From: a virus
Direction: 5' to 3' (one strand)
Virus record (IMG/VR): IMGVR_UViG_3300045988_152616
Coordinates: 1-41,265 of that record
DNA length: 41,265 nt
Shown: positions 175-41,265 of the stretch, piece after piece
How positions within the stretch are numbered: the first letter of the stretch is position 1
Layout of the letters: each line of letters opens with the position of its first letter
The notes under the pieces: generated by a model
Seen by the model: only the letters and a program-made list of their open reading frames with translations
Databases searched by the model: none
What the model was told of the DNA's origin: nothing
Program-made: the position numbers and the translations under genes

Positions 175-398
175 GGTTTTGCCTCCCGAATATTATCTTT
201 AATCCACTCAATGTACATAAGCGCGTCAACAAGCTCCTCCTCAATATAGCGGATACGGGTGTCGATGCTGGCAGGGTTGGCCTCCAGGGGCAGTCCGTAT
301 TTTTTCAGGCCCTTTTCCCGCTGGTGGTGGTAGATGGCTGTAATGCGATCCCAGTATTTATCCACGACGCAGCTCCTCCCAAATTTTGCTAGACACAA
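171..398 (-). CDS. Small MazG-like / NTP pyrophosphohydrolase-like protein (probable true start GTG 365)
   Basis: ORF track 171..398. GGGAGGAG lies 7 nt upstream of GTG 365, which overlaps the dcd stop. The KYG...[13 protein letters not shown] helix pattern resembles all-alpha NTP pyrophosphohydrolases. Confidence 0.5.
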
Positions 399-885
399 TC
401 TCCCTGCTCCCCTGGTATTTGCCGTGGTAGGTATCCGTCACCTCCCCGCACACGGGATGATAGGACAGCTGCCCGATCTCCATGTTGGGGTAGATGCGGA
501 CCGGCTCCACGGCGACAATCTCCAGTGTCCAGTAGCCCTTGAATCCCACATCACCATAACCAGCCGTGACGTGGATGAACAGCCCTAAGCGCCCTATGGA
601 GGAACGCCCCTCCAACTTCGGCACCAGTCCGTAGGTCTCCGTCCACTCGTTGGTGCGACCGAGGTAGAGCTTCCCAGGGGTCAGCACAAGCCCCTCATCG
701 GGGATGGTGATGGTCCGTGTCCGGTTGTCCTGCCGGGGATCCAGACAGGCCTCGGTATAGACCATCAACTCCGGGGCCAGGGAGACGTTGTAGCTGTTCG
801 GGTTTACCCGGGCATCGTCCCAGGGTTCTATCACGATGGATCCAGCCTCATGCTGGAGTTTGATTTCGTTACCGCTTAAAATCAT
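358..885 (-). CDS. dcd: dCTP deaminase
   Basis: 175 aa. MILSGNEI..., [40 protein letters not shown] are hallmark Dcd/dUTPase-fold motifs. AGGAGG lies before the ATG. Confidence 0.93.
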
Positions 886-7860: not shown

Positions 7861-8083
7861 GGTTCGATTCCTCCTTCTTCTTTTGCTGGTTAATCCAGTT
7901 GTAAATGGTTTTGACCGTAACGTGATAGTGCTCCGCCAAAACCTTCTTGTTCTCCGTCGTCGCCCTCCGTTCAGCGAAGTCTGCCGGGACGCCCCGCCGC
8001 TTGTAGCAGCATTTGCCCTTGCAGTCCAACGCTGGGCAGTGGAGGCAGCGCTGGATTTTCTCCATAGGTTCCGACCGCGGCAC
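7853..8083 (-). CDS. Small HTH DNA-binding protein with Cys-rich N-terminus (start uncertain: 8083, 8065 or 8170)
   Basis: The stop of 8103..8285 is followed by GAGGGAGGA, 5 nt, then GTG 8083. The C-terminus KKVLAEHYHVTVKTIYNWI looks like an HTH. Confidence 0.55.
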   Translation of the reverse strand: MPRSEPMEKIQRCLHCPALDCKGKCCYKRRGVPADFAERRATTENKKVLAEHYHVTVKTIYNWINQQKKKEESNHE

Positions 8084-8102
8084 GCGGGTCCTCCCTCGGT
8101 TT

Positions 8103-8285
8103 CTAAGGGAGGGACTTTCTCTCCAGGGTCGATGCCCTTGTGTTTCCACCTTCACGCCGTTGATCTTCATGACGCAACCTCCATTCACACTTCGGGCAGA
8201 TGTACACCTTTCCGCCTGGTTCTATGGCAGACACATTCCGCCGGTTGCCACAACGGCGGCAAACGCGGTACACGGGGCCGCTCAT
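8103..8285 (-). CDS. Small zinc-ribbon protein (60 aa)
   Basis: CRRCGN...CPKCEW. ATGA overlap with the upstream gene. Confidence 0.5.
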   Translation of the reverse strand: MSGPVYRVCRRCGNRRNVSAIEPGGKVYICPKCEWRLRHEDQRREGGNTRASTLERKSLP

Positions 8286-9676: not shown

Positions 9677-10303
9677 ATGAGTGCTCTGTCAAAGATACTT
9701 AAGAAGCGAAGGAAAGAACTCGGCTTAACATTGGCACAAGTTGCAGACGCAGTAGGCGTTACTGAAGCTACAGTGCAGAGATGGGAAAGCGGAAACATTA
9801 AAACAGTTAGATACGAAAAGTTGGCCCCGTCGTCGAGTCTTCTTGGCGTGTCTCCGGCTGATCTCATGGGTTGGAGTAGTGACGACGATCTCCCGTCTAA
9901 TATCTCTCGGATAGAACCCATGCAAAAAATCCCCCTTGTGGGTCAGATTGCCTGCGGGACCCCCATCCTGGCGGAGCAAAATATAGAGGATTACGTTGAC
10001 CTGCCCGGACACATTCGGGCGGACTTCGCCCTGACCTGCAAAGGGGAAAGCATGATCGGAGCCGGGATTAGGACCGGAGACATCGTATATATCCGAAAGC
10101 AGGAAGAAGTAGAAAATGGCCAAATCGCCGCCGTCATGGTAGGAGGTGACGAGGCAACACTAAAACGAGTCTATACCAAACCAGGGGTTGTCCAGCTGGT
10201 GGCGGAAAATCCAAATATAGCCCCAGCGGTTTTTATAGGCAAAGAGGCTGAACAAATTCATATCATTGGACTGGCCGTAGCGTATACACATGTACTAGAT
10301 TGA
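9677..10303 (+). CDS. cI/LexA-like repressor (XRE HTH + S24 peptidase)
   Basis: 208 aa. N-terminal HTH LTLAQVADAVGVTEATVQRWE. C-terminal GESM...TLKRV Ser/Lys dyad region. Confidence 0.9.
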   Translation: MSALSKILKKRRKELGLTLAQVADAVGVTEATVQRWESGNIKTVRYEKLAPSSSLLGVSPADLMGWSSDDDLPSNISRIEPMQKIPLVGQIACGTPILAEQNIEDYVDLPGHIRADFALTCKGESMIGAGIRTGDIVYIRKQEEVENGQIAAVMVGGDEATLKRVYTKPGVVQLVAENPNIAPAVFIGKEAEQIHIIGLAVAYTHVLD

Positions 10304-10317
10304 TTGGAGGAACAACA

Positions 10318-11241
10318 ATGAAGAAAGAGAGAGCGATTCCCATGATCCTTAGTGTTGCACTTGCGTTGTGTTTGGTCGGGTGTGGCAATGACGCGCCGCC
10401 GGAAGAAGAAGCAGAGCCGGAAGCCACACAGCAGTCCAACGCAGAATCTGAACGAATAAAAACAAATGACTTTAATAATGGTGCGTCAGAATACTATATA
10501 AAAAATTTGTGGTTTTCTGTCCCCTCATCCTGGAGGATGGATAACGAAAGGAACCCAGGGACAACATACTTCTACCCACCGTCTGGGAACGGACTGGAGC
10601 TTCTTATGGTGGTGTTTTCAGAGTCAGAAGAATCCATATTGAAACAAGAAAGTGTGGATGGACTTATTTCCGGTTTGGAAGAAGGAAACGAAAACTATAA
10701 ATATACTTCAAGTGCATTTGATAAAAATCTGATTGGCGAAAACTATGCGATAATAAAATATTCTTCCACCATAAAAGGAAATGACTATAACCTCTCAATG
10801 GTATGCTTTGACTGTGATGGAGGATTTGTATATTTCTTGCTCGGTGAATTATCTGATTCTTCCTATGATTATTCTTCAGATTTCAAAAATATAGTTGATT
10901 CTGTCGCAATATCGTCTGTTCCGGCGAAGACAGAACCGGAAGAAAAAAATGCGACCACAGGTGAGATCAACGCCTTAGAGAAAGCGTTGAGCTATCTCAA
11001 TTACACATCCTTCTCCCGTTCCGGTCTGATTGACCAACTCGAATACGAAGGGTTTTCTACCGAAGAAGCTACTTACGGCGTAGATAACTGCGGCGCAGAC
11101 TGGAACGAGCAAGCTGCCAAGAAAGCGCAAAGTTACCTTGATTATTCGTCCTTCTCCAGACAGGGGCTAATTGACCAACTTGTGTTTGAGGGATTCACGC
11201 AGGAACAGGCAGAATACGGCGTGTCTTCCGTCGGGTACTAA
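10318..11241 (+). CDS. Lipoprotein with two C-terminal Ltp-type repeats (superinfection-exclusion-like)
   Basis: GGAGG before ATG 10318. Signal peptide with lipobox LVGC. Duplicated SYL(N/D)Y(T/S)SFSR.GLIDQL..EGF..E.A.YGV resembles TP-J34 Ltp repeats. Confidence 0.75.
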   Translation: MKKERAIPMILSVALALCLVGCGNDAPPEEEAEPEATQQSNAESERIKTNDFNNGASEYYIKNLWFSVPSSWRMDNERNPGTTYFYPPSGNGLELLMVVFSESEESILKQESVDGLISGLEEGNENYKYTSSAFDKNLIGENYAIIKYSSTIKGNDYNLSMVCFDCDGGFVYFLLGELSDSSYDYSSDFKNIVDSVAISSVPAKTEPEEKNATTGEINALEKALSYLNYTSFSRSGLIDQLEYEGFSTEEATYGVDNCGADWNEQAAKKAQSYLDYSSFSRQGLIDQLVFEGFTQEQAEYGVSSVGY

Positions 11242-11295
11242 CTTCATTCCCCCGCCGCCGAGGGCGGCCAAAAATAAAAAACGGAGGAAAACAAA

Positions 11296-12111
11296 ATGAA
11301 AAAGAGAGCCCTAATTATCCTACTCGGAGGAGCGTTTGCCCTGTCCTTGTGTGCTTGTGGAGAAAACGATACCACAAGTCAAGAACCCTCTTCCCCGCCT
11401 GACCTCACCGGAGTATGGACGCAGGTGGGAGCAAGTGAAGGCGACAGCTACCAACAGGCAATCATCTCAGGAAACACCATCACCATCAACTGGGTCGATC
11501 CGGAAAGCACGGCTCTTTACTGGGCTGGCACCTTTGCCGCACCGACCACAACCGACGAGCCATACACCTGGACCTCCGAGAATGATACGTCAAAAACCGG
11601 CACGGCCCTTCTGGCAGCAACGAGCGAAACGAAAGATTTCACTTATGAGGACGGGAAGATCACCTACGAAGTTTCTGCGCTCGGGAGCACAACTACTGTG
11701 TCCCTGGAGAAGACCGGGGATGCCCCGGCTGTGATCGAGGAACCAGAGTCAAATTATGAAGTGACAATTGACAGTGCATCTATCGAGGCTAATCCCTATA
11801 CGGGAGACCGGGCCCTTATCGTAAACTGCACATTCACGAACAACAGCGAGGAAAATGCGGCGCCAGATGTTGCCCTTCATATCCAGGCATTCCAAGACGG
11901 GATTGAATTGGATCCAGATTTCTTTGATTCTTCGTCCTATGATTCAATGTCCGCATCAAGGGAGGTGCAGCCGGGTAATACCTACGAATTCCAGAAAGCA
12001 TTTGTACTGACAAACGAGACGTCCTCAATTGATGTCTCTGTGAGCGAGTTGTTTGCTCTTGACGGTGGAACACTCGCGGAAAAGACCTTCGATCCGGCCA
12101 CTCTCGCATAA
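11296..12111 (+). CDS. Lipoprotein with DUF5067/DUF4352-like C-terminal beta-sandwich
   Basis: 271 aa. Signal peptide with lipobox LSLCAC. C-terminal ALIVNCTFTNNSEE... pattern. Confidence 0.6.
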   Translation: MKKRALIILLGGAFALSLCACGENDTTSQEPSSPPDLTGVWTQVGASEGDSYQQAIISGNTITINWVDPESTALYWAGTFAAPTTTDEPYTWTSENDTSKTGTALLAATSETKDFTYEDGKITYEVSALGSTTTVSLEKTGDAPAVIEEPESNYEVTIDSASIEANPYTGDRALIVNCTFTNNSEENAAPDVALHIQAFQDGIELDPDFFDSSSYDSMSASREVQPGNTYEFQKAFVLTNETSSIDVSVSELFALDGGTLAEKTFDPATLA

Positions 12112-12203: not shown

Positions 12204-12226
12204 ACCAAAGATAGGAGGAATTGCAA

Positions 12227-13345
12227 GTGAAATGCAAAAAATGCCATACTGGATTGCCGGAAAAGGCGAAATACTGCCCTCAGTGCGGGGCAAAGATCAC
12301 CTCCGGCCAGGCCACGAAATCCCGGGGGAACGGGACCGGAACCGTATACAAGCGGGGAAAAACGTGGACCGCCGCCAAAACCCTGGGGTACTACGTTTCG
12401 GAGGACAAGCTGCACCGGGAGGTGCGAACCAAGGGAGGCTTTAAGACCAAACGGGAGGCGTTAGAGTATCTCTCCATCCTCGGGCGAGAGCCAGCAACGA
12501 AGGCCCGCACGTTCCGCCAAGTGTACGACCTGTGGTTTCCGACCCACCAAGCAAGCGCGTCCACGATGGGATGCTACCAAGCGGCAATGAAATGGTTTAA
12601 GCCGGTGTGGGGGTATAAACTGGATTATATCACCATAGAGGACCTGCAAGACTGTATGGACGATTGCCCCAAAGGCAAGAGAACTCAGCAGAACATGAAA
12701 GCCGTTTGCGGGCTGATCTACAAATACGCCATCCCACGGGGCCTTGCACGGCTCAATCTGGGCGAGTATTTGCGTGTAGGGGGTACGGATACCGGCCCGA
12801 GGGAAGGCCTGCCAGAGAGCGCTGTAGAGGCCCTAGAGAAGGCGCAGGACACCGTACCGGGAGCGGACTACGTTTTGTGTCAATGCTATTTGGGATACAG
12901 GCCATCGGAACTGCTCACCCTGGATGCCTCGCAATACGACCGAAAGGAAAAGGTGTTCCGGTGGGGAATGAAAACCTCCGCCGGGAAAAACAGGGTTGTG
13001 ACCATCTCCCCCAAAATACAACCTGTTATTGACAGGCTTACTGCCAACAAAATTGGAGGGCCGATTTTCTGCCGCCAGGATGGAGGCGAGATGCCGATCG
13101 CAGAATATCGCGAGTTGTTCTACTCCGTCCTGGATGCAATCGGAGTGGAAAATCCTGTGAACGAATTCGGGTACCACCGCTATACCCCGCATTCTTGCCG
13201 CCACACATTTGCTACCCTGCTTAAACGAGTTAAGGGGTCAGACAAGGACAAGCTGGAATTGATAGGGCACACATCGAATGAAATGCTACGGCATTATCAG
13301 GACGTTGATTTGGAGGATTTGCGGAAAATAACCGACGCACTTTGA
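12227..13345 (+). CDS. int: Tyrosine recombinase/integrase with N-terminal zinc ribbon
   Basis: GTG 12227 lies 8 nt after GGAGG (the ORF track starts at TTG 12221). CKKCH...CPQCG N-terminus. C-terminal HSCRHTFATLL ... GH ... LRHY catalytic pattern. Confidence 0.9.
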   Translation: MKCKKCHTGLPEKAKYCPQCGAKITSGQATKSRGNGTGTVYKRGKTWTAAKTLGYYVSEDKLHREVRTKGGFKTKREALEYLSILGREPATKARTFRQVYDLWFPTHQASASTMGCYQAAMKWFKPVWGYKLDYITIEDLQDCMDDCPKGKRTQQNMKAVCGLIYKYAIPRGLARLNLGEYLRVGGTDTGPREGLPESAVEALEKAQDTVPGADYVLCQCYLGYRPSELLTLDASQYDRKEKVFRWGMKTSAGKNRVVTISPKIQPVIDRLTANKIGGPIFCRQDGGEMPIAEYRELFYSVLDAIGVENPVNEFGYHRYTPHSCRHTFATLLKRVKGSDKDKLELIGHTSNEMLRHYQDVDLEDLRKITDAL

Positions 13346-13571: not shown

Positions 13572-13600
13572 AAAAGAGGCCCACGGAGGGCCTCTTTTAT
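13572..13600 (-). terminator. Terminator (bidirectional hairpin) ending the accessory cassette
   Basis: AAGAGGCCC-ACGG-AGGGCCTCTT sits directly after the XRE gene stop, with T-runs on both strands. Confidence 0.65.
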
Positions 13601-13800
13601 TTTTCGATCAGCTCGCGTGGATCCACTTCTAAAATATCCGCGATGGATAAAAGATTTCGAGCGCTCATGTTCCCGGCCTCGCTTGTCCCCAGCTCGACCC
13701 GCCTGATCTGGCGGATGTTGACGCCGGAGGCATCTGCAAGCTGTTGTTGGGTCATGCCCGCATTTGTGCGGGCGGATTTCAGCTTGTTCTCCATAAGCAT
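13597..13800 (-). CDS. XRE-family HTH regulator (67 aa; ORF track extends to 13827)
   Basis: HTH MTQQQLADASGVNIRQIRRVE. ATG 13800 overlaps the upstream TAA (TAATG). Confidence 0.75.
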   Translation of the reverse strand: MLMENKLKSARTNAGMTQQQLADASGVNIRQIRRVELGTSEAGNMSARNLLSIADILEVDPRELIEK

Positions 13801-13913
13801 TAGAGGGCATGGTATATGCTGTCGCACATGGATTCAATTTCGTCGTTTTCCCAGCCGCTAAAATCTGGCTGCTTGGAGTAGGTTTCGCTCCTGTCGATGA
13901 TGTACATTGACAT
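13800..13913 (-). CDS. Hypothetical micro-protein (37 aa)
   Basis: ATG 13913 preceded by AGGAGG. MSMYIIDRSETYSKQPDFSGWENDEIESMCDSIYHAL. Confidence 0.45.
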   Translation of the reverse strand: MSMYIIDRSETYSKQPDFSGWENDEIESMCDSIYHAL

Positions 13914-13926
13914 TTTATATTCCTCC

Positions 13927-14172
13927 TTAGTATCTCCAGATCCGGAAGTGTGGATCTTCGTTGACGCTCTTCCCGGTGCAGTACTTGTACACCTTGCTTC
14001 CCATGGGCCAGGTTGCCATGGCAATCAGTTTGCCGCCGTCGTACAGCTCTAGGGTGTCCGATGTCCGGCCGTATTTCATGGCGACCTCTCGGATGTTCCC
14101 GAGCTCGGTGTCAAATTCGGCCATGTTGGAAAATTCCCCGTTGTCATAGCGCTTGACGTGGTAGGTTTTCAT
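13927..14172 (-). CDS. Hypothetical protein (81 aa)
   Basis: ORF track. ATGA overlap with the upstream gene. Confidence 0.6.
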   Translation of the reverse strand: MKTYHVKRYDNGEFSNMAEFDTELGNIREVAMKYGRTSDTLELYDGGKLIAMATWPMGSKVYKYCTGKSVNEDPHFRIWRY

Positions 14173-14534
14173 TCGGCTCCCTCCTTATTGGCACGATCCC
14201 ATTCTCTTGTCAGAGTGTACGCCGGAAAATCCAGCCCCCGGCAGACAACGATGCGCCCAAGAACGGTCTTCCCTACGGTGGCCTCCATGACCTCTGCCTG
14301 CTCCCGGGTTATAGATCTGAGCCACAGCCGTTCGGCCATCCGGTGGAGGTGGGACCACAGGGCATCAGCTGCCTGTTCTGCCGTTAAAGGCTTCCCGGTG
14401 AGGATGTATTTCTCCCCGCGCGCCAATTCGGCCTCGTAGAACTGTTCTACCTTCATCCAGTCTGCCCCGAGGGCGTCCAGGATGTCCAGAATTTGAGTGG
14501 TGTGCTTCTGGCCCAATATCTCATGAATTTCCAC
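14169..14534 (-). CDS. Hypothetical protein (121 aa)
   Basis: GTG 14534 lies 6 nt after GGAGAG. No motif recognised. Confidence 0.6.
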   Translation of the reverse strand: MEIHEILGQKHTTQILDILDALGADWMKVEQFYEAELARGEKYILTGKPLTAEQAADALWSHLHRMAERLWLRSITREQAEVMEATVGKTVLGRIVVCRGLDFPAYTLTREWDRANKEGAE

Positions 14535-14553
14535 GTCATTCTCTCCTTCCTTT

Positions 14554-14853
14554 TCAAGCGGCCACGAACTCGCCGGTCATGTTGTCAACGTACCCGATCT
14601 TCTCAGTGCGCTTGCGGCTCCAAGCGTTGGTGTAGACAGCGACCTCAACATAGGTGCGGCTCTTGCCAGCCTTGTTCCAGTCATTCACGCGGACCTTGGT
14701 ATTCCAGTCAATGTCTGCGGCAACAGTCTCGGCGGTGTTGATGGCCTTGGCCAGGGCCCAGGCGGCGCGGAGTGCAGTGCTCATGCTGATGTTGTTAGTG
14801 CGGCGGATGTTCCAGGCGTTTACCATAATCTCATGCATGTTGTACTTTTTCAT
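14554..14853 (-). CDS. Hypothetical protein (99 aa)
   Basis: ATG 14853 after GGGAGG. First gene behind the dedicated promoter. Confidence 0.6.
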   Translation of the reverse strand: MKKYNMHEIMVNAWNIRRTNNISMSTALRAAWALAKAINTAETVAADIDWNTKVRVNDWNKAGKSRTYVEVAVYTNAWSRKRTEKIGYVDNMTGEFVAA

Positions 14854-14968: not shown

Positions 14969-15010
14969 ATAAAAAATAGCCCCCGATCTGAGTGGTATCT
15001 CAGTCGGGGG
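14969..15010 (-). terminator. Intrinsic terminator ending the late/lysis operon
   Basis: Minus strand: CCCCCGACTGAG-ATACCA-CTCAGATCGGGGG, then CTATTTTTT, 8 nt after the stop at 15018. Confidence 0.75.
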
Positions 15011-15017
15011 TTTTGTG

Positions 15018-15281
15018 TCAGGTTGTGTGTTTTACGCGGTCCATGACCTCCGCCCGCTTGGCATCGTTGAAACGGCCCAGGTCTCCCACCAGGTAACCGG
15101 TGATCCGGCGGATGCGCTGGAACGGCACCCGTTCAAAAACGGGAGTGATCCCGAATTCGTCGGGATTGCCGGTGCGGCGGATGGAGATCTCGACAACCTT
15201 TCGTCCTTCTTCCTGCTCCATCATGTCGATGGCTGCCTGGACAATCTCCTCCGGGATATTGTCTGGGTTGTGGATAGTCAT
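15018..15281 (-). CDS. Stand-alone NrdD-type glycyl-radical domain protein (87 aa)
   Basis: ATG 15281 forms an ATGA overlap with the endolysin stop. The C-terminus RIRRITGYLVGDLGRFNDAKRAEVMDRVKH resembles the class III RNR glycyl radical motif (RRVCGYLG...FN.GK..E...RVKH, recalled from T4/E. coli NrdD). Confidence 0.6.
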   Translation of the reverse strand: MTIHNPDNIPEEIVQAAIDMMEQEEGRKVVEISIRRTGNPDEFGITPVFERVPFQRIRRITGYLVGDLGRFNDAKRAEVMDRVKHTT

Positions 15282-16057
15282 TTGAGCAACCCCAGTCTGC
15301 CGAGGATGGCCACAACCTCGTTGCGCTTCATGTGGCGGACGGGAGAGGAACCATCGGAGACGCCGGCCTCCTGTGCCTTTTCCCACCAACCTTCCTTCTT
15401 GGACCAATCATCATCCGGCAGGGTTGCCGCATGGATCTCGGCCTTCTTTACCAGTTCGTACGCCTGCTCGTTGGTCATCTCGGACAGCAGTTTGTTGATA
15501 TCCATATCCTCATCTTCTCCTTTCAGTCGGGCGTTCACACGCTCTGCGATTTCGCCATATTTGCCAAATAAGTAGTTGCCAGGGCACGACTTGCCCTTGT
15601 CCGTGGTGTACCGGTGGGGCACCATGTTGCACACAGCCCAGTTTCCGGTAAAGGCCGGGCAATACTGCTTGCCTTCCTTCCAGATCAATTTCTTGATGCC
15701 GTTTCGCTGGCAGATGTCCACACAGAGGTCGATCAAGCTCTCGAAGGCGGCTTCCGTACATTCATAAGGCTCCTGGTAGCTCTGGATACTGGACACCTCG
15801 ATGGTCACCACCTGGTGATCCACCTTGTGGGAGCAGCACCAGGCCCGGTTTTCCTCGAGTACGTACTGTCCGATGCGGCCATCCGGCCCGATACCGTAAT
15901 GGCTAGAGGCTTCGGAGGTTTGGAACACCTGCCCGCATCCCTCCACGCTGCCAGGACCGGCCATAGTGTGGATGGAGATGCCCTTGATTGTCCCCTGTCT
16001 AGGCTTGGTGCAGTGAGGGGACAATTTCGTGTATACAACTAGCTTACTATTACTCAC
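15278..16057 (-). CDS. Endolysin, N-acetylmuramoyl-L-alanine amidase (Amidase_2/PGRP) with C-terminal binding domain
   Basis: 259 aa. GISIHTMAG...SSHYGIGPDGRIGQYV..ENRAWC pattern. Confidence 0.88.
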   Translation of the reverse strand: MSNSKLVVYTKLSPHCTKPRQGTIKGISIHTMAGPGSVEGCGQVFQTSEASSHYGIGPDGRIGQYVLEENRAWCCSHKVDHQVVTIEVSSIQSYQEPYECTEAAFESLIDLCVDICQRNGIKKLIWKEGKQYCPAFTGNWAVCNMVPHRYTTDKGKSCPGNYLFGKYGEIAERVNARLKGEDEDMDINKLLSEMTNEQAYELVKKAEIHAATLPDDDWSKKEGWWEKAQEAGVSDGSSPVRHMKRNEVVAILGRLGLLK

Positions 16058-16268
16058 CAGCGCTCACCTCCTGTTTTACTTCGGGCAACCCCGCAACAGA
16101 AGTCAGCAGGGAAAGAACCCCGGCCAAAACTGCGGCGGATACCGCCATAATCCAATTGACATCGGACAGCACAGCGGCTGCACCGATGGTGGCAACGGCA
16201 GTCTGAGCCATAGTCTTGATGGCTCTTATCCCGGCAGCCTTCCACCAGAGTTTCCATTTTTCACTCAT
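16050..16268 (-). CDS. Holin (LL-H/phiLC3-like pattern)
   Basis: 72 aa with two hydrophobic helices. IRAIKTMAQTAVATIG...LTSVAGLPE. Immediately upstream of the endolysin. Confidence 0.8.
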   Translation of the reverse strand: MSEKWKLWWKAAGIRAIKTMAQTAVATIGAAAVLSDVNWIMAVSAAVLAGVLSLLTSVAGLPEVKQEVSAGE

Positions 16269-29842: not shown

Positions 29843-31342
29843 TTAACCCCCCGACTTGGTCACCGTAACAGTGTAAGATTTGTTCGCGGTACCATTCGCT
29901 GCGGTCACCTTCGCGATCAGGGTGTTTGCGCCTTCCTTCCAGGTAACTGCTCGTCCATTCACGACGGGAGCGGCTGCATCGTCGCTGGGCCCCTGGTTCG
30001 TGATTTCGATGGTCGCATTTGCGTCTGCCGGGATTGCCATGACCGTGTTGGTAGCGTTGGTGGTAGACGCGGTATAGGTAGTAGTACCGGCTGCAAAGGC
30101 GGGAGACAGGGTCAGGCCGCCGATCCGCAGGTCTGCCAGATCATCCACATCGGAAGCAGTGGGGGCTGCGACCTGCTGCACCTTCCACACGGCGGGCTGG
30201 ATGGCGGAGATGTCCAGGACGAAGAAAGCGTTGTTGTCCATGGGGAAGCCGTTTGCGTAGCCCTTGATCAGGTATACGCGCTCATCCTCCAGGAACCGGT
30301 AGTGATCGGAGTACTCAATCCGGCCGTCTCGGGCAGAGCCGATAGCGGCAAAGTACTTGTACCCCAGGCCCATGATCGCCTGGCCCTGCTCCACAGCGGG
30401 GGACTGGATTACAGTCATGGGATAAGGCATCACGTCGTTGGCGTAAGTACCGTTGGGGGTCATCATAGTGGTAGCAGGCATAATCTTCTGGAAGTAGTCC
30501 ACAGGATTGACCACCAGGATCACGTCACGCACATTTCTGGCCTTGCCATTAGGATCCACCGCCATGAGGGAGAGAAGATTACCCACAGTTGCGGGAGACA
30601 AGTCGGACACAGCCACAGGAGCCTTTACGGGGTATACGCCGCCGGTCACAGTCACGTTGTCGCCGACCTGGCGATTCATGCCGATGGGCATCTCGTTGCC
30701 GTCGCCAGCCACAATACCGGCCTCCAGCCCGTTGGCATAGGCCTCATACAAAACCTGCCGCACAAAGCTATCCAGCCATTCAGGGCCCAAATCCAGCATG
30801 GCCTTGCAGACCGGCATAAAGGCGGACAGCTTGAGCAGGCCGGTGTCCACTTCCTTGAATCCGGAGGTCAGCTCCCGGACGATCTCGTCACACAGCTGGC
30901 CCCAGGCAGCTTCCTGGTAGCCGTTGGTGTTCATCATCATCCGGATCGCGCCACGGGTGTTGGTGAACTGGATATGGGACAGCAGAGGGTGGGAAGTCTG
31001 GAGCTCATCGAACACAGCGTCAATGACGGTCTCAGGCATCACCACATCCAGGTTGTTCAGAGCCTGGCGGGGATCCTTTTCCTTCATGGCGCCGATGAGC
31101 TTCTGATAGAAGACCCTCTCCTTGCTGGTGAGCTGGCGCACGCCACGGGCGGTCAATACAGAGGTGTCAATCCCCTGCTTCATCTCCTCCACCTGCTCGG
31201 CGGCTCTCTGCTGCACATCGTCGCCGATGTTCTGAATCATCTCGTCAAAGGCGACCGAGAACGCATCGGTGTTGCCGTCCTTTATGGCCTGCTGAATTTG
31301 GGCCCGGATCTCGTCCCGGGTCAGAGCGTCATTATTTCTCAT
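29843..31342 (-). CDS. Major capsid protein (HK97 fold) fused to a C-terminal cadherin-like/Ig-like domain
   Basis: 499 aa. Follows the Clp-type protease. C-terminus LTLSPAFAAGTTTYTASTTNATNTVMAIPADANATIEI...YTVTVTK. Confidence 0.85.
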   Translation of the reverse strand: MRNNDALTRDEIRAQIQQAIKDGNTDAFSVAFDEMIQNIGDDVQQRAAEQVEEMKQGIDTSVLTARGVRQLTSKERVFYQKLIGAMKEKDPRQALNNLDVVMPETVIDAVFDELQTSHPLLSHIQFTNTRGAIRMMMNTNGYQEAAWGQLCDEIVRELTSGFKEVDTGLLKLSAFMPVCKAMLDLGPEWLDSFVRQVLYEAYANGLEAGIVAGDGNEMPIGMNRQVGDNVTVTGGVYPVKAPVAVSDLSPATVGNLLSLMAVDPNGKARNVRDVILVVNPVDYFQKIMPATTMMTPNGTYANDVMPYPMTVIQSPAVEQGQAIMGLGYKYFAAIGSARDGRIEYSDHYRFLEDERVYLIKGYANGFPMDNNAFFVLDISAIQPAVWKVQQVAAPTASDVDDLADLRIGGLTLSPAFAAGTTTYTASTTNATNTVMAIPADANATIEITNQGPSDDAAAPVVNGRAVTWKEGANTLIAKVTAANGTANKSYTVTVTKSGG

Positions 31343-40802: not shown

Positions 40803-41265
40803 TCAATGCCTCACGGCTTCCCCCCTGGTTATGTAATGATGGATCCCAGGTGCGCACTCGTTCCAGCGATTTTCGTCAAAATTTTGCACCTCTACGGTCT
40901 CGCCGACGCGATAGACGAAACTGCTATCATAGTCGCTGCAAACCTCATTCCCGGCTGGTGTCCCATCCAATTCTGTAATGCTAACCACAACGGCTTTATT
41001 GGCCCGGCATTTTCTACTGGTAGAAGAGGATCTTTTTGCATCAGTCGGTATTTTAAGCTTGACAATTTTCCCATCGGCTTTCTTGAATCCTATGTACTCC
41101 CCTACTTCGGGGCAGGAGAATGGATAGAATAGATTTTTAGCCGAATCTATGTATTTTGCCCAGCTCATGACGGCCCCTCTCATGTCGGCCCCGCTCATGT
41201 CGGCCCCGCTCATGTCGGCCCCGCTCATGTCGGCCCCTCTCATGTCGGCCCCTCTCATGTCGGCC
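40803..41265 (-). CDS. Pentapeptide-repeat protein, repeat plus C-terminal domain part (continues from nt 174..1)
   Basis: (ADM[RS]G)n, then a C-terminal domain ending [22 protein letters not shown]. This resembles the DUF5758-type domain I recall fused to phage pentapeptide proteins. Confidence 0.8.
41166..41265. repeat. Tandem 15-nt coding repeat (6 units plus 10 nt; CTCT/CGCT variants)
   Basis: Read directly. Same unit and phase as nt 1-100. Confidence 0.95.

Follow-up and report, generated by a model that had tools for sequence, protein, structure and literature searches.

A stand-alone glycyl-radical gene closes the lysis cassette of a temperate gut phage

The stretch of viral DNA analyzed here (IMG/VR record IMGVR_UViG_3300045988_152616, positions 1 to 41,265; 41,265 nucleotides in all, hereafter the window) is a complete temperate siphovirus-like phage genome, and our subject is a small gene on its minus strand for a stand-alone glycyl-radical protein of the type that normally forms the C-terminus of NrdD, the anaerobic (class III) ribonucleotide reductase (RNR). 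The coding sequence of this gene, which we call mini-NrdD, occupies positions 15018..15281 (minus strand, stop codon included), running from an ATG at 15281-15279 to a stop codon at 15020-15018, and its translation (MTIHNPDNIPEEIVQAAIDMMEQEEGRKVVEISIRRTGNPDEFGITPVFERVPFQRIRRITGYLVGDLGRFNDAKRAEVMDRVKHTT) is 87 amino acids long and contains no cysteine. Mini-NrdD is the last gene of a minus-strand late operon with the order terminase, portal, capsid, tape measure, tail fibre, holin, amidase, mini-NrdD. It closes a lysis cassette that opens with a 72-amino-acid holin (16050..16268, minus strand; Pfam Phage_r1t_holin, 2.7e-15) and continues with a 259-amino-acid N-acetylmuramoyl-L-alanine amidase endolysin (15278..16057, minus strand; Pfam Amidase_2, 6.1e-17), whose stop codon overlaps the mini-NrdD start in an ATGA typical of translational coupling (15278..15281, minus strand). 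A -4 or -1 overlap of the mini gene with the amidase gene also occurs in the related phages L002-L014 and L161-L164. An original prediction, made from the letters of the window alone, had described an 87-amino-acid open reading frame (ORF) joined to the endolysin stop in this way; it proved exact at 15018-15281, and the strand, which it had left unstated, is minus.

Directly 3′ of mini-NrdD lies an intrinsic terminator (14971..15010, minus strand), consisting of a 12-bp G+C-rich hairpin (15010-14980) followed by CUAUUUUUU. This terminator had been missed by a simple terminator scan and was found by RNA folding: the region 15020-14955 folded at -23.7 kcal/mol (z = -6.6), and none of 200 shuffled sequences was equally stable. 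Beyond it, a promoter scan located a near-consensus promoter-like site, TTGAAA-17-TATAAT (14923-14895, minus strand), for the next unit. Given this succession of terminator and promoter-like site, we conclude that mini-NrdD closes the late, or lysis, transcription unit. The promoter scan, which is not conclusive, returned no sigma-70-like promoter upstream of mini-NrdD inside the amidase gene, and as far as the sequence tells, mini-NrdD shares its transcript with the lysis genes.

The C-terminal segment is homologous to NrdD and its glycine is in the radical register

The mini-NrdD protein has two parts. Residues 1-53 (15123..15281, minus strand) form an N-terminal domain that is absent from canonical NrdD and for which AlphaFold2 (AF2), run with a multiple sequence alignment (MSA) of the family, predicted a beta-alpha-beta-beta fold. 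Residues 54-87 (15021..15122, minus strand; FQRIRRITGYLVGDLGRFNDAKRAEVMDRVKHTT) form a glycyl-radical segment homologous to the extreme C-terminus of NrdD. In Pfam, residues 54-85 matched positions 533-562 of the 562-position NRDD profile (PF13597) with 28.1 bits, the gathering score being 26.2. NrdD equivalogs in NCBIfam matched with E values of 5.7e-11 and 8.7e-11, restricted to the last ~35 model positions, with scores of 30-42 bits against curated cut-offs of 326-764 (TIGR02487/PRK07111/PRK14704). The 'NrdD-like' family PHROG 487 was matched at its C-terminal end (1.8e-6). Among structures in the PDB, the NrdD of P. copri (8P23) was found with an E value of 4e-4 using the single sequence and 1.9e-13 using a family profile, and T4 NrdD (1H78) with an E value of 0.02. 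The resemblance to the C-terminal glycyl-radical segment of NrdD, which the original prediction had drawn from the T4 and E. coli NrdD motifs, is therefore backed statistically by matches in Pfam, NCBIfam, PHROG and PDB. No match to the Gly_radical family typical of pyruvate formate-lyase (PFL; Pfam PF01228) appeared at E<=10, NRDD being the only such family found, and no GrcA model was among the NCBIfam matches.

We found the C-terminal RxxGY motif in mini-NrdD with its glycine, Gly62 (codon GGT, 15096..15098, minus strand), at the position predicted to bear the radical. In the alignment to 8P23, whose 743-residue chain has four N-terminal residues more than the 739-residue protein, Gly62 falls on chain residue 715, which is Gly711, the radical glycine, in the native numbering of P. 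copri NrdD (PcNrdD; PMC11226230). Tyr63 and Arg70 fall on Tyr712 and Arg719. In the family-profile alignment to T4 NrdD, the radical-glycine column lies on the 'A' of ...RRTCAYLG..., position 580 of 1H78, which we take to be the G580A crystallization mutant. A glycine out of line with the radical glycine of NrdD had been named in the original prediction as one finding that would speak against it; in both single-sequence and profile alignments, the glycine was in register.

Beyond the Gly loop, mini-NrdD shares with the C-terminal domain of NrdD (8P23, 1H78, PF13597) the tyrosine that follows it, the arginine, and the C-terminal helix and tail. Unlike the ~550-800-amino-acid NrdDs, the 87-residue protein has no ATP-cone, no 10-stranded alpha/beta barrel with its Cys (finger) loop, and none of the four Zn-ribbon cysteines that stand ahead of the Gly loop; it has instead a new N-terminal domain of ~50 amino acids, and it is encoded by a separate gene. 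The lack of a catalytic barrel and of Zn-ribbon cysteines had also been anticipated, and it is borne out by the length and composition of the protein.

Mini-NrdD belongs to an abundant family under purifying selection

The identical protein is encoded on 7 contigs, and more than 100 clusters lie at 89-100% identity, all of 87-92 amino acids. Across 18 homologues (152 pairs), the median pairwise dN/dS was 0.11 (range, 0.03-0.37), with both the N- and the C-terminal halves constrained. When we scanned 1.84 billion cluster representatives with HMMER, in a search free of any motif pattern, 1820 representatives matched at E<=1e-3; the best 150 of these 1820 were all short proteins, mostly of 86-120 amino acids, and many aligned over residues 1-86. 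The phmmer alignments covered the full length (query residues 1-86) in many proteins of 86-103 amino acids, with E values from 1e-25 to 1e-10. We also fetched 80 viral and 80 genomic loci, of which 153 carried a short ORF (median, 92 amino acids) and not a full NrdD.

Thirty diverse members, when aligned, had invariant columns at R56, R58, R59, I60, T61, G62, Y63, G66, N72, K75, E78, R82 and H85. In the architecture of the family, at ~85-100 amino acids, an N-terminal beta-alpha-beta-beta domain leads into FxRIRRITGYLVG..(F/W)N.(A/G)K..E..DRVKH, and the window protein fits it. No dedicated model for this family exists in Pfam, NCBIfam 20.0 or PHROGs v4, where its members match only the tails of NrdD models. 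INPHARED yielded only 10 matches, all of them uncultured human-gut contigs, and no cultured phage with a mini gene.

In the AF2 model, strands span residues 2-4, 29-36 and 43-49 and a helix spans residues 11-25, with a predicted local distance difference test (pLDDT) of 84-90 for the N-terminal domain. For the C-terminal part, the prediction was a Gly loop in extended form and a helix spanning residues 73-80, which corresponds to the short helix after the Gly loop of PcNrdD (PMC11226230). Foldseek found no structural neighbours of the N-terminal domain in the PDB or BFVD at E<=1e-3.

Some members of the family are considerably longer. P0147, P0157, P0166, P0172 and P0232 (210-314 amino acids) have a long unrelated N-terminal extension before the ~90-amino-acid module, and in some proteins of this size there is a C-terminal extension too. 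An apparent second motif, RRVCGY, in loci L100, L125 and L134 was rejected: the frames that contain it have no start codon, and the translated frame of L100 is non-coding noise.

Truncated NrdDs are accompanied by minis

To describe the neighbourhoods of mini genes we relied on a greedy ORF heuristic, and our functional statements on minis rest on comparative genomics throughout. In four viral loci (L036, L049, L051 and L058) and two genomes (L120, Mailhella; L124, Selenomonadales), the NrdD beside the mini stops soon past its Zn-ribbon CxxC...CxxCGR and lacks the glycyl motif. This motif is provided by the mini, nrdG is usually adjacent, and the Zn ribbon remains on the NrdD core. Minis adjoin NrdD cores in these loci and also in L168, L172, L178, L179 and nine of the loci L180-L255, and in every checkable case a truncated NrdD, whether of Selenomonadaceae, of several Clostridia or of a phage lineage, had a mini beside it, usually with nrdG. 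The truncated genes (L124:5683-7959, L168:4001-6295, L172:4001-6259, L178:3001-5508, L179:3001-5289, L051:4085-5923 and those of ten loci among L180-L255) carry the ordinary annotation 'anaerobic ribonucleoside triphosphate reductase'. In phage L049, the truncated nrdD is separated from the mini by an ORF of 354 amino acids (L049:4731-5795), by its sequence a candidate peptidoglycan-binding, endolysin-like protein.

The truncation is a property of whole lineages. Of the 120 NrdDs most similar to that of L124, 83 (750-788 amino acids; Schwartzia, Selenomonas and Selenomonadaceae) have no Gly motif and share the conserved tail ...CPRCGRTEAEHHHHQVIPRIHCGN, and the remaining 37 (777-789 amino acids) terminate in ...FERIRRITGYLVG...DRVKH. 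In a MAFFT alignment, the truncated Selenomonadales tails fell on the segment preceding the glycine, so that the core stops ~0-3 residues from the radical-glycine position. That this truncated tail (EAEHHHHQVIPRIHCGN) is conserved in Selenomonadales suggests a role such as docking of the mini. The order MscS / truncated NrdD / mini (94 amino acids) / NrdG is found in the complete genome of Selenomonas sp. TAMA-11512 and in a lineage of 163 database blocks, and the syntenic locus of S. sputigena reads MscS / full NrdD / NrdG, with the mini absent. In two further loci, L130:6767-8770 (Selenomonas sp. GACV-9) and L131:6735-8855 (a Mitsuokella metagenome-assembled genome), the syntenic order is MscS / mini / NrdG; nrdD is absent from its place after MscS, and the core gene must be either elsewhere or missing.

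Similar truncations occur in Clostridia, where 24 of 120 NrdDs related to that of L150 are truncated or degenerate at the same point. Their tails vary, ending in …HERIKRIK, ERIRRIKSYKV or …SERIRRIKSYKV directly before the stop codon or reading …GFERIRRISCTPC…, and this variety suggests independent truncation events. The two truncated Clostridia NrdDs that we examined for context were both accompanied by mini, nrdG and nrdR. In a phage survey of 79 closely related NrdD loci, 69 had the Gly loop in cis, and none of these 69 had a mini within 4 kb. The other 10 NrdDs end in …EKVRRIK, one residue short of the glycine position; a mini follows immediately downstream in nine of them, and the tenth is cut by the end of its contig (Fisher p=4.9e-11).

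A frameshift, an intron or a split intein as the cause of the split was rejected by reasoning, because the gaps between core and mini measure 0-136 nucleotides or hold an unrelated gene, and because the mini owns an N-terminal domain of ~55 amino acids while the core tail past the Zn ribbon comprises ~15-20. Given that minis adjoin NrdDs without a Gly loop and are distributed in a manner complementary to one-piece NrdDs, there is a strong genomic inference that the mini works in trans as a glycyl-radical subunit and is catalytically productive. In the related bacteria and phages it is apparently an essential, separately encoded piece of NrdD. The natural truncated cores look like an encoded version of the fragment that is left when oxygen cleaves a glycyl radical enzyme at its glycine (PMC13450708, PMC12288474). 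The split loci and the complementary distribution thus lend strong comparative support to the earlier proposal that a stand-alone NrdD radical piece could work in trans on an NrdD core.

We also assessed how the window protein compares to the minis of split operons. Over the whole protein, BLASTP gave 40% identity (E=4e-15) with collinear N-terminal domains. An hhalign comparison of the N-terminal domains only, between the phage lineage and the split-operon lineage, was weakly significant (E=5.9e-4, probability 29%), and homology of this domain therefore rests mainly on the collinear whole-protein alignments.

Minis also occur beside complete NrdDs, rubrerythrin genes and phage lysis genes

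Not all neighbouring NrdDs are truncated. In L150, L175 and L176, an nrdD with its own Gly loop is followed by a mini, nrdG and nrdR, and L176 stands for a lineage, related to Clostridium sp. CAG:1219, that is present in 129 blocks. The last 33 residues of these minis are identical to those of the cognate NrdD at 31-32 positions, with 6-8 synonymous codon differences, and the tails of mini and cognate NrdD co-vary by lineage (…AEEHDRVKH versus …AEVRDRVKHM). In P0503, a related lineage, the NrdD is full and a mini is absent. A complete NrdD accompanied by a mini is the arrangement that would be expected of a spare. In L176, an ORF of 217 amino acids without a Pfam match (L176:5333-5986) lies between the complete nrdD and the mini.

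Another context, one of oxidative stress, recurs in six Ruminococcus/Oscillospiraceae genomes (L092, L121, L128, L143, L144 and L148, with the mini at ~7970-8260 of the 16-kb loci). Here, a divergent gene for a Crp/Fnr-like regulator precedes the mini, and a rubredoxin-rubrerythrin gene, whose product is a fusion with one or two N-terminal rubredoxin-like domains, follows it after 25-57 nucleotides. Rubrerythrin or ferritin-like genes also adjoin the mini in two further loci. Of 127 neighbours in genomes, 8 were rubrerythrins, more than of any other family, against 4 NrdG-type radical S-adenosylmethionine (SAM) proteins. In two genome loci, the gene adjoining the mini encodes S-adenosylmethionine synthetase.

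In diverse viral contigs, the neighbours of minis are enriched in endolysin modules (PG_binding_1/3, CHAP, NlpC/P60, GH25 and Amidase_3), holins and integrases, and the window mini-NrdD sits in the same cargo position as these phage orphan minis. An integrated copy of its lineage retains holin, amidase and mini with different cargo downstream; this synteny is thus kept in both free and integrated copies. Metagenome-assembled genomes that carry this prophage lineage include JALERU01 (Clostridiales SUG277) and CAKTSK01 (Eubacteriales), and the nearest members of the subfamily, P0122 and P0123, come from contigs shorter than 1 kb. We found no NrdD core or NrdG elsewhere in the 41-kb window by tblastn, and in the integrated copy L161, where host flanks could be seen, no nrd genes lie within 10 kb. 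The genomic partnership with nrdG and an NrdD core, seen in other members of the family, is therefore missing from the window copy, which must rely on host genes.

A possible radical cartridge for host NrdD

On this evidence we lean, by a small measure, towards the view that the ORF is a functional, autonomous NrdD-type module that re-arms host NrdD via host NrdG. As modelled, it would comprise a small folded N-terminal domain, the Gly loop (RRITG62YLVG), and the C-terminal helix and tail of NrdD. Since the phage has neither NrdD nor NrdG, the activase would be host NrdG, a radical-SAM enzyme, which would take a hydrogen atom from Gly62 of the free mini. The Gly loop of the activated mini would then insert into a host NrdD barrel in which the resident loop is missing, O2-cleaved or unactivated, and pass the radical on to the Cys-loop cysteine, so that ribonucleotide reduction and deoxyribonucleoside triphosphate (dNTP) synthesis could go on. 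GrcA/YfiD re-arms PFL in this manner. The glycyl radical domain (GRD) of NrdD is inherently mobile and flips out of the core to meet NrdG (PMC12662201). Activation by host NrdG and re-arming of host NrdD is what we consider most likely for the phage copy, with rescue from oxygen damage as the presumed selective benefit, and mini-NrdD probably serves as an exchangeable 'radical cartridge', for which one other enzyme so far offers the only known parallel. The broader proposal, in which class III RNR has a detachable, exchangeable cartridge that sometimes replaces the C-terminus and elsewhere serves as a backup, and in which phage cargo re-arms O2-damaged host NrdD, would in our judgement fall just short of an even chance.

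The original prediction had cast the protein as a possible spare for complete NrdD damaged by oxygen. That part has gained indirect support from the operons with both full NrdD and mini, from the cores that mimic the cleavage product and from the rubrerythrin context; the clearest role of the family, as an obligate subunit of split NrdDs, had not been foreseen. Several observations weigh against re-arming of a damaged enzyme. Most adjacency of mini and nrdD represents obligate split enzymes and not repair, and the rubrerythrin association is seen in only about 10% of genome loci. The phage mini is 38-47% identical to minis from split, full-plus-mini and rubrerythrin contexts alike, and this comparison favours no one type of host NrdD. 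On a complete NrdD, a module acting in trans would have to displace the resident Zn-ribbon/GRD. Given the coupling of mini-NrdD to the endolysin and the lack of a detected sigma-70-like promoter upstream, expression may be late-lytic, an odd time for a dNTP boost unless lysogens express the gene too. Finally, many of the loci were fetched by the pattern RRITGYLV, so that the invariance of the motif is partly circular, although the pattern-free HMMER search shows the same motif.

It is also possible, if rather unlikely, that the host NrdD is naturally split and that the phage mini is an extra or replacement obligate radical subunit, an auxiliary metabolic gene (AMG) product that raises the number of active RNRs. 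Split NrdDs with minis are common in Selenomonadaceae, Clostridia and phages, they account for most mini-nrdD adjacency (about 20 loci versus 3), and the loci L130 and L131, with mini and nrdG together and nrdD apparently elsewhere, suggest that unlinked minis can be obligate subunits. However, the family is not confined to split systems, as seen from the Ruminococcus minis that stand beside rubrerythrin and a Crp/Fnr-like regulator and not beside nrd genes, and from the operons with a full NrdD, and a host that already makes the subunit would gain no clear benefit from a phage copy. Alternatively, the protein could be a decoy or inhibitor that mimics the NrdD loop, titrates NrdG or blocks NrdD cores, and thereby lowers host dNTPs, for example for superinfection exclusion or host control. 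The moron-like position of this orphan, last in the lysis cassette and close to the integrase, is a frequent site of exclusion or conversion genes, the phage has another exclusion-type gene (for an Ltp lipoprotein), and a decoy too would have to retain the motif recognized by NrdG. We regard a decoy as improbable, given that split enzymes have no radical glycine other than that of their mini homologues, which marks the family as catalytically productive. The phage copy, moreover, keeps all residues that are invariant in productive minis, including Y63, R70 and the C-terminal DRVKH tail, which lies on the surface of the core, and selection on the mini shows no sign of being relaxed or diversifying.

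A partner other than NrdD, to which the mini would donate its radical or which it would regulate, is conceivable in that the N-terminal domain, with no recognizable relative in PDB or BFVD, might set a new specificity; some members have long unrelated N-terminal extensions, and most minis are unlinked to nrd genes. Yet the Gly segment is NrdD-specific and follows the C-terminus of the cognate NrdD almost residue by residue, there is no match to the PFL-type Gly_radical family in Pfam, and NrdD and NrdG are the only recurrent enzyme partners in mini neighbourhoods, all of which makes another glycyl radical enzyme or some unrelated protein a very improbable partner. Sequence analysis led us to reject, as scarcely credible, a non-functional leftover of an nrdD 3′ end, from a phage or from the host. 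The likeness to NrdD is limited to the last ~34 residues, and databases name such ORFs 'anaerobic ribonucleoside triphosphate reductase', as might be expected of a remnant; a dN/dS of 0.11, the conserved length and start, the conserved non-NrdD N-terminal domain with its confidently predicted fold, the thousands of homologues, the translational coupling and the dedicated terminator all argue for a gene in use.

Relation to known systems

The closest functional parallels are GrcA/YfiD of E. coli and Y06I of phage T4, free radical domains that complement PFL (PMC13450708, PMC8683613). Like mini-NrdD, these are small stand-alone proteins whose C-terminal half copies the glycyl-radical segment of the parent enzyme, and the mini, like GrcA/YfiD, is presumed to be activated by the activase of the parent enzyme and to replace a lost or inactive loop in trans. 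Y06I is the phage-encoded PFL counterpart of the phage mini. YfiD serves O2-cleaved PFL, to which it binds without further truncation (PMC13450708, PMC8683613), and the natural NrdD cores stop where O2 would cut. The mini, small and stand-alone with its own start, stop and terminator, is GrcA-like in architecture only: it is homologous to NrdD and not to PFL (no PF01228 match, and a motif of RRITGYLVG versus the RVSGY of the PFL type), it has 87 amino acids versus the 127 of GrcA/YfiD, and a fold is predicted for its N-terminal half (pLDDT 84-90), whereas that of YfiD is disordered. In many genomes, furthermore, the enzyme is truncated at the gene level and has the mini as its sole carrier of the radical, and we know of no report of such an arrangement for PFL.

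Among RNRs, a two-gene catalytic subunit has a precedent in the class II enzyme NrdJa/NrdJb of Pseudomonas aeruginosa, which is made from two neighbouring genes, one for the barrel-containing chain and one for a small C-terminal chain (Crona et al. 2015, cited in PMC9669993). Split NrdD with its mini parallels this arrangement, and the window itself, which has no core gene, does not constitute a split RNR. NrdJa/NrdJb differs in relying on adenosylcobalamin chemistry and in that NrdJb bears a Zn-finger/IscU-like reducing tail and not a radical cofactor. To our knowledge, NrdJb has not been seen as an orphan phage gene. Phages with complete NrdD/NrdG AMGs (PHROG 487; T4 nrdD/nrdG) likewise manipulate anaerobic dNTP synthesis, and related phage lineages carry nrdD, in one piece or split, with nrdG. 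Unlike these, the phage of the window has the radical piece only and leaves core and activase to its host.

A review of June 2026 lists spare parts for formate lyases only (PMC13450708), which agrees with the earlier remark that no NrdD equivalent of GrcA is established. In our own literature search, in which subscription journals were thinly covered, neither a split class III RNR nor a spare part for NrdD came up. If our interpretation is true, minis would be the first spare-part system known outside PFL for a glycyl radical enzyme, the split form would be the first natural class III RNR in two pieces, and the phage copy would be an oxygen-tolerance factor that a virus brings to strict anaerobes. 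By the comparative data, class III RNR comes in two pieces in Selenomonadaceae, in several Clostridia and in one phage lineage, and the mini family is a concrete, abundant and directly testable candidate for an NrdD spare part. Pipelines for RNR classification and annotation mislabel both pieces: truncated cores pass as complete NrdD, and minis are entered as hypothetical proteins or as 'anaerobic ribonucleoside triphosphate reductase'. With GRD and core on separate natural polypeptides, these systems would suit structural and mechanistic work such as trapping the NrdG-GRD complex. They could also help to account for dNTP-precursor synthesis in strict anaerobes of the gut after exposure to oxygen, and for the carriage of mini genes by prophages.

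Other features of the phage genome

A second nucleotide-metabolism gene, dCTP deaminase-like (DCD/dUTPase superfamily), lies in the replication module at the left end of the window (358-885, minus strand). On the plus strand, a lysogeny-side cargo block (9677-12111) begins with a CI-like helix-turn-helix (HTH)/S24 repressor (9677-10303, plus strand), followed by an Ltp-type surface lipoprotein (10300-11241, plus strand), a family tied to superinfection exclusion, and by a lipoprotein-like ORF of 271 amino acids whose homologue in L163 has DUF5067. The tyrosine integrase (12221-13345, plus strand) has an N-terminal zinc-ribbon (Zn_Ribbon_1/DZR matches), which is unusual among phage integrases.

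Downstream of the mini-NrdD terminator, a separate small transcription unit (13597-14853, minus strand) holds ORFs of 99, 121 and 81 amino acids without a Pfam match and an XRE-type HTH protein. The related prophages L161-L163 carry other cargo in that slot, namely a DZR_2-like ORF of 200 amino acids, an ORF of 107 amino acids and an HTH protein. The major capsid protein (29843-31342, minus strand) has a C-terminal cadherin-like beta-sandwich domain, and a pentapeptide-repeat/DUF5758 protein is encoded at the right end of the window (40803-41258, minus strand).

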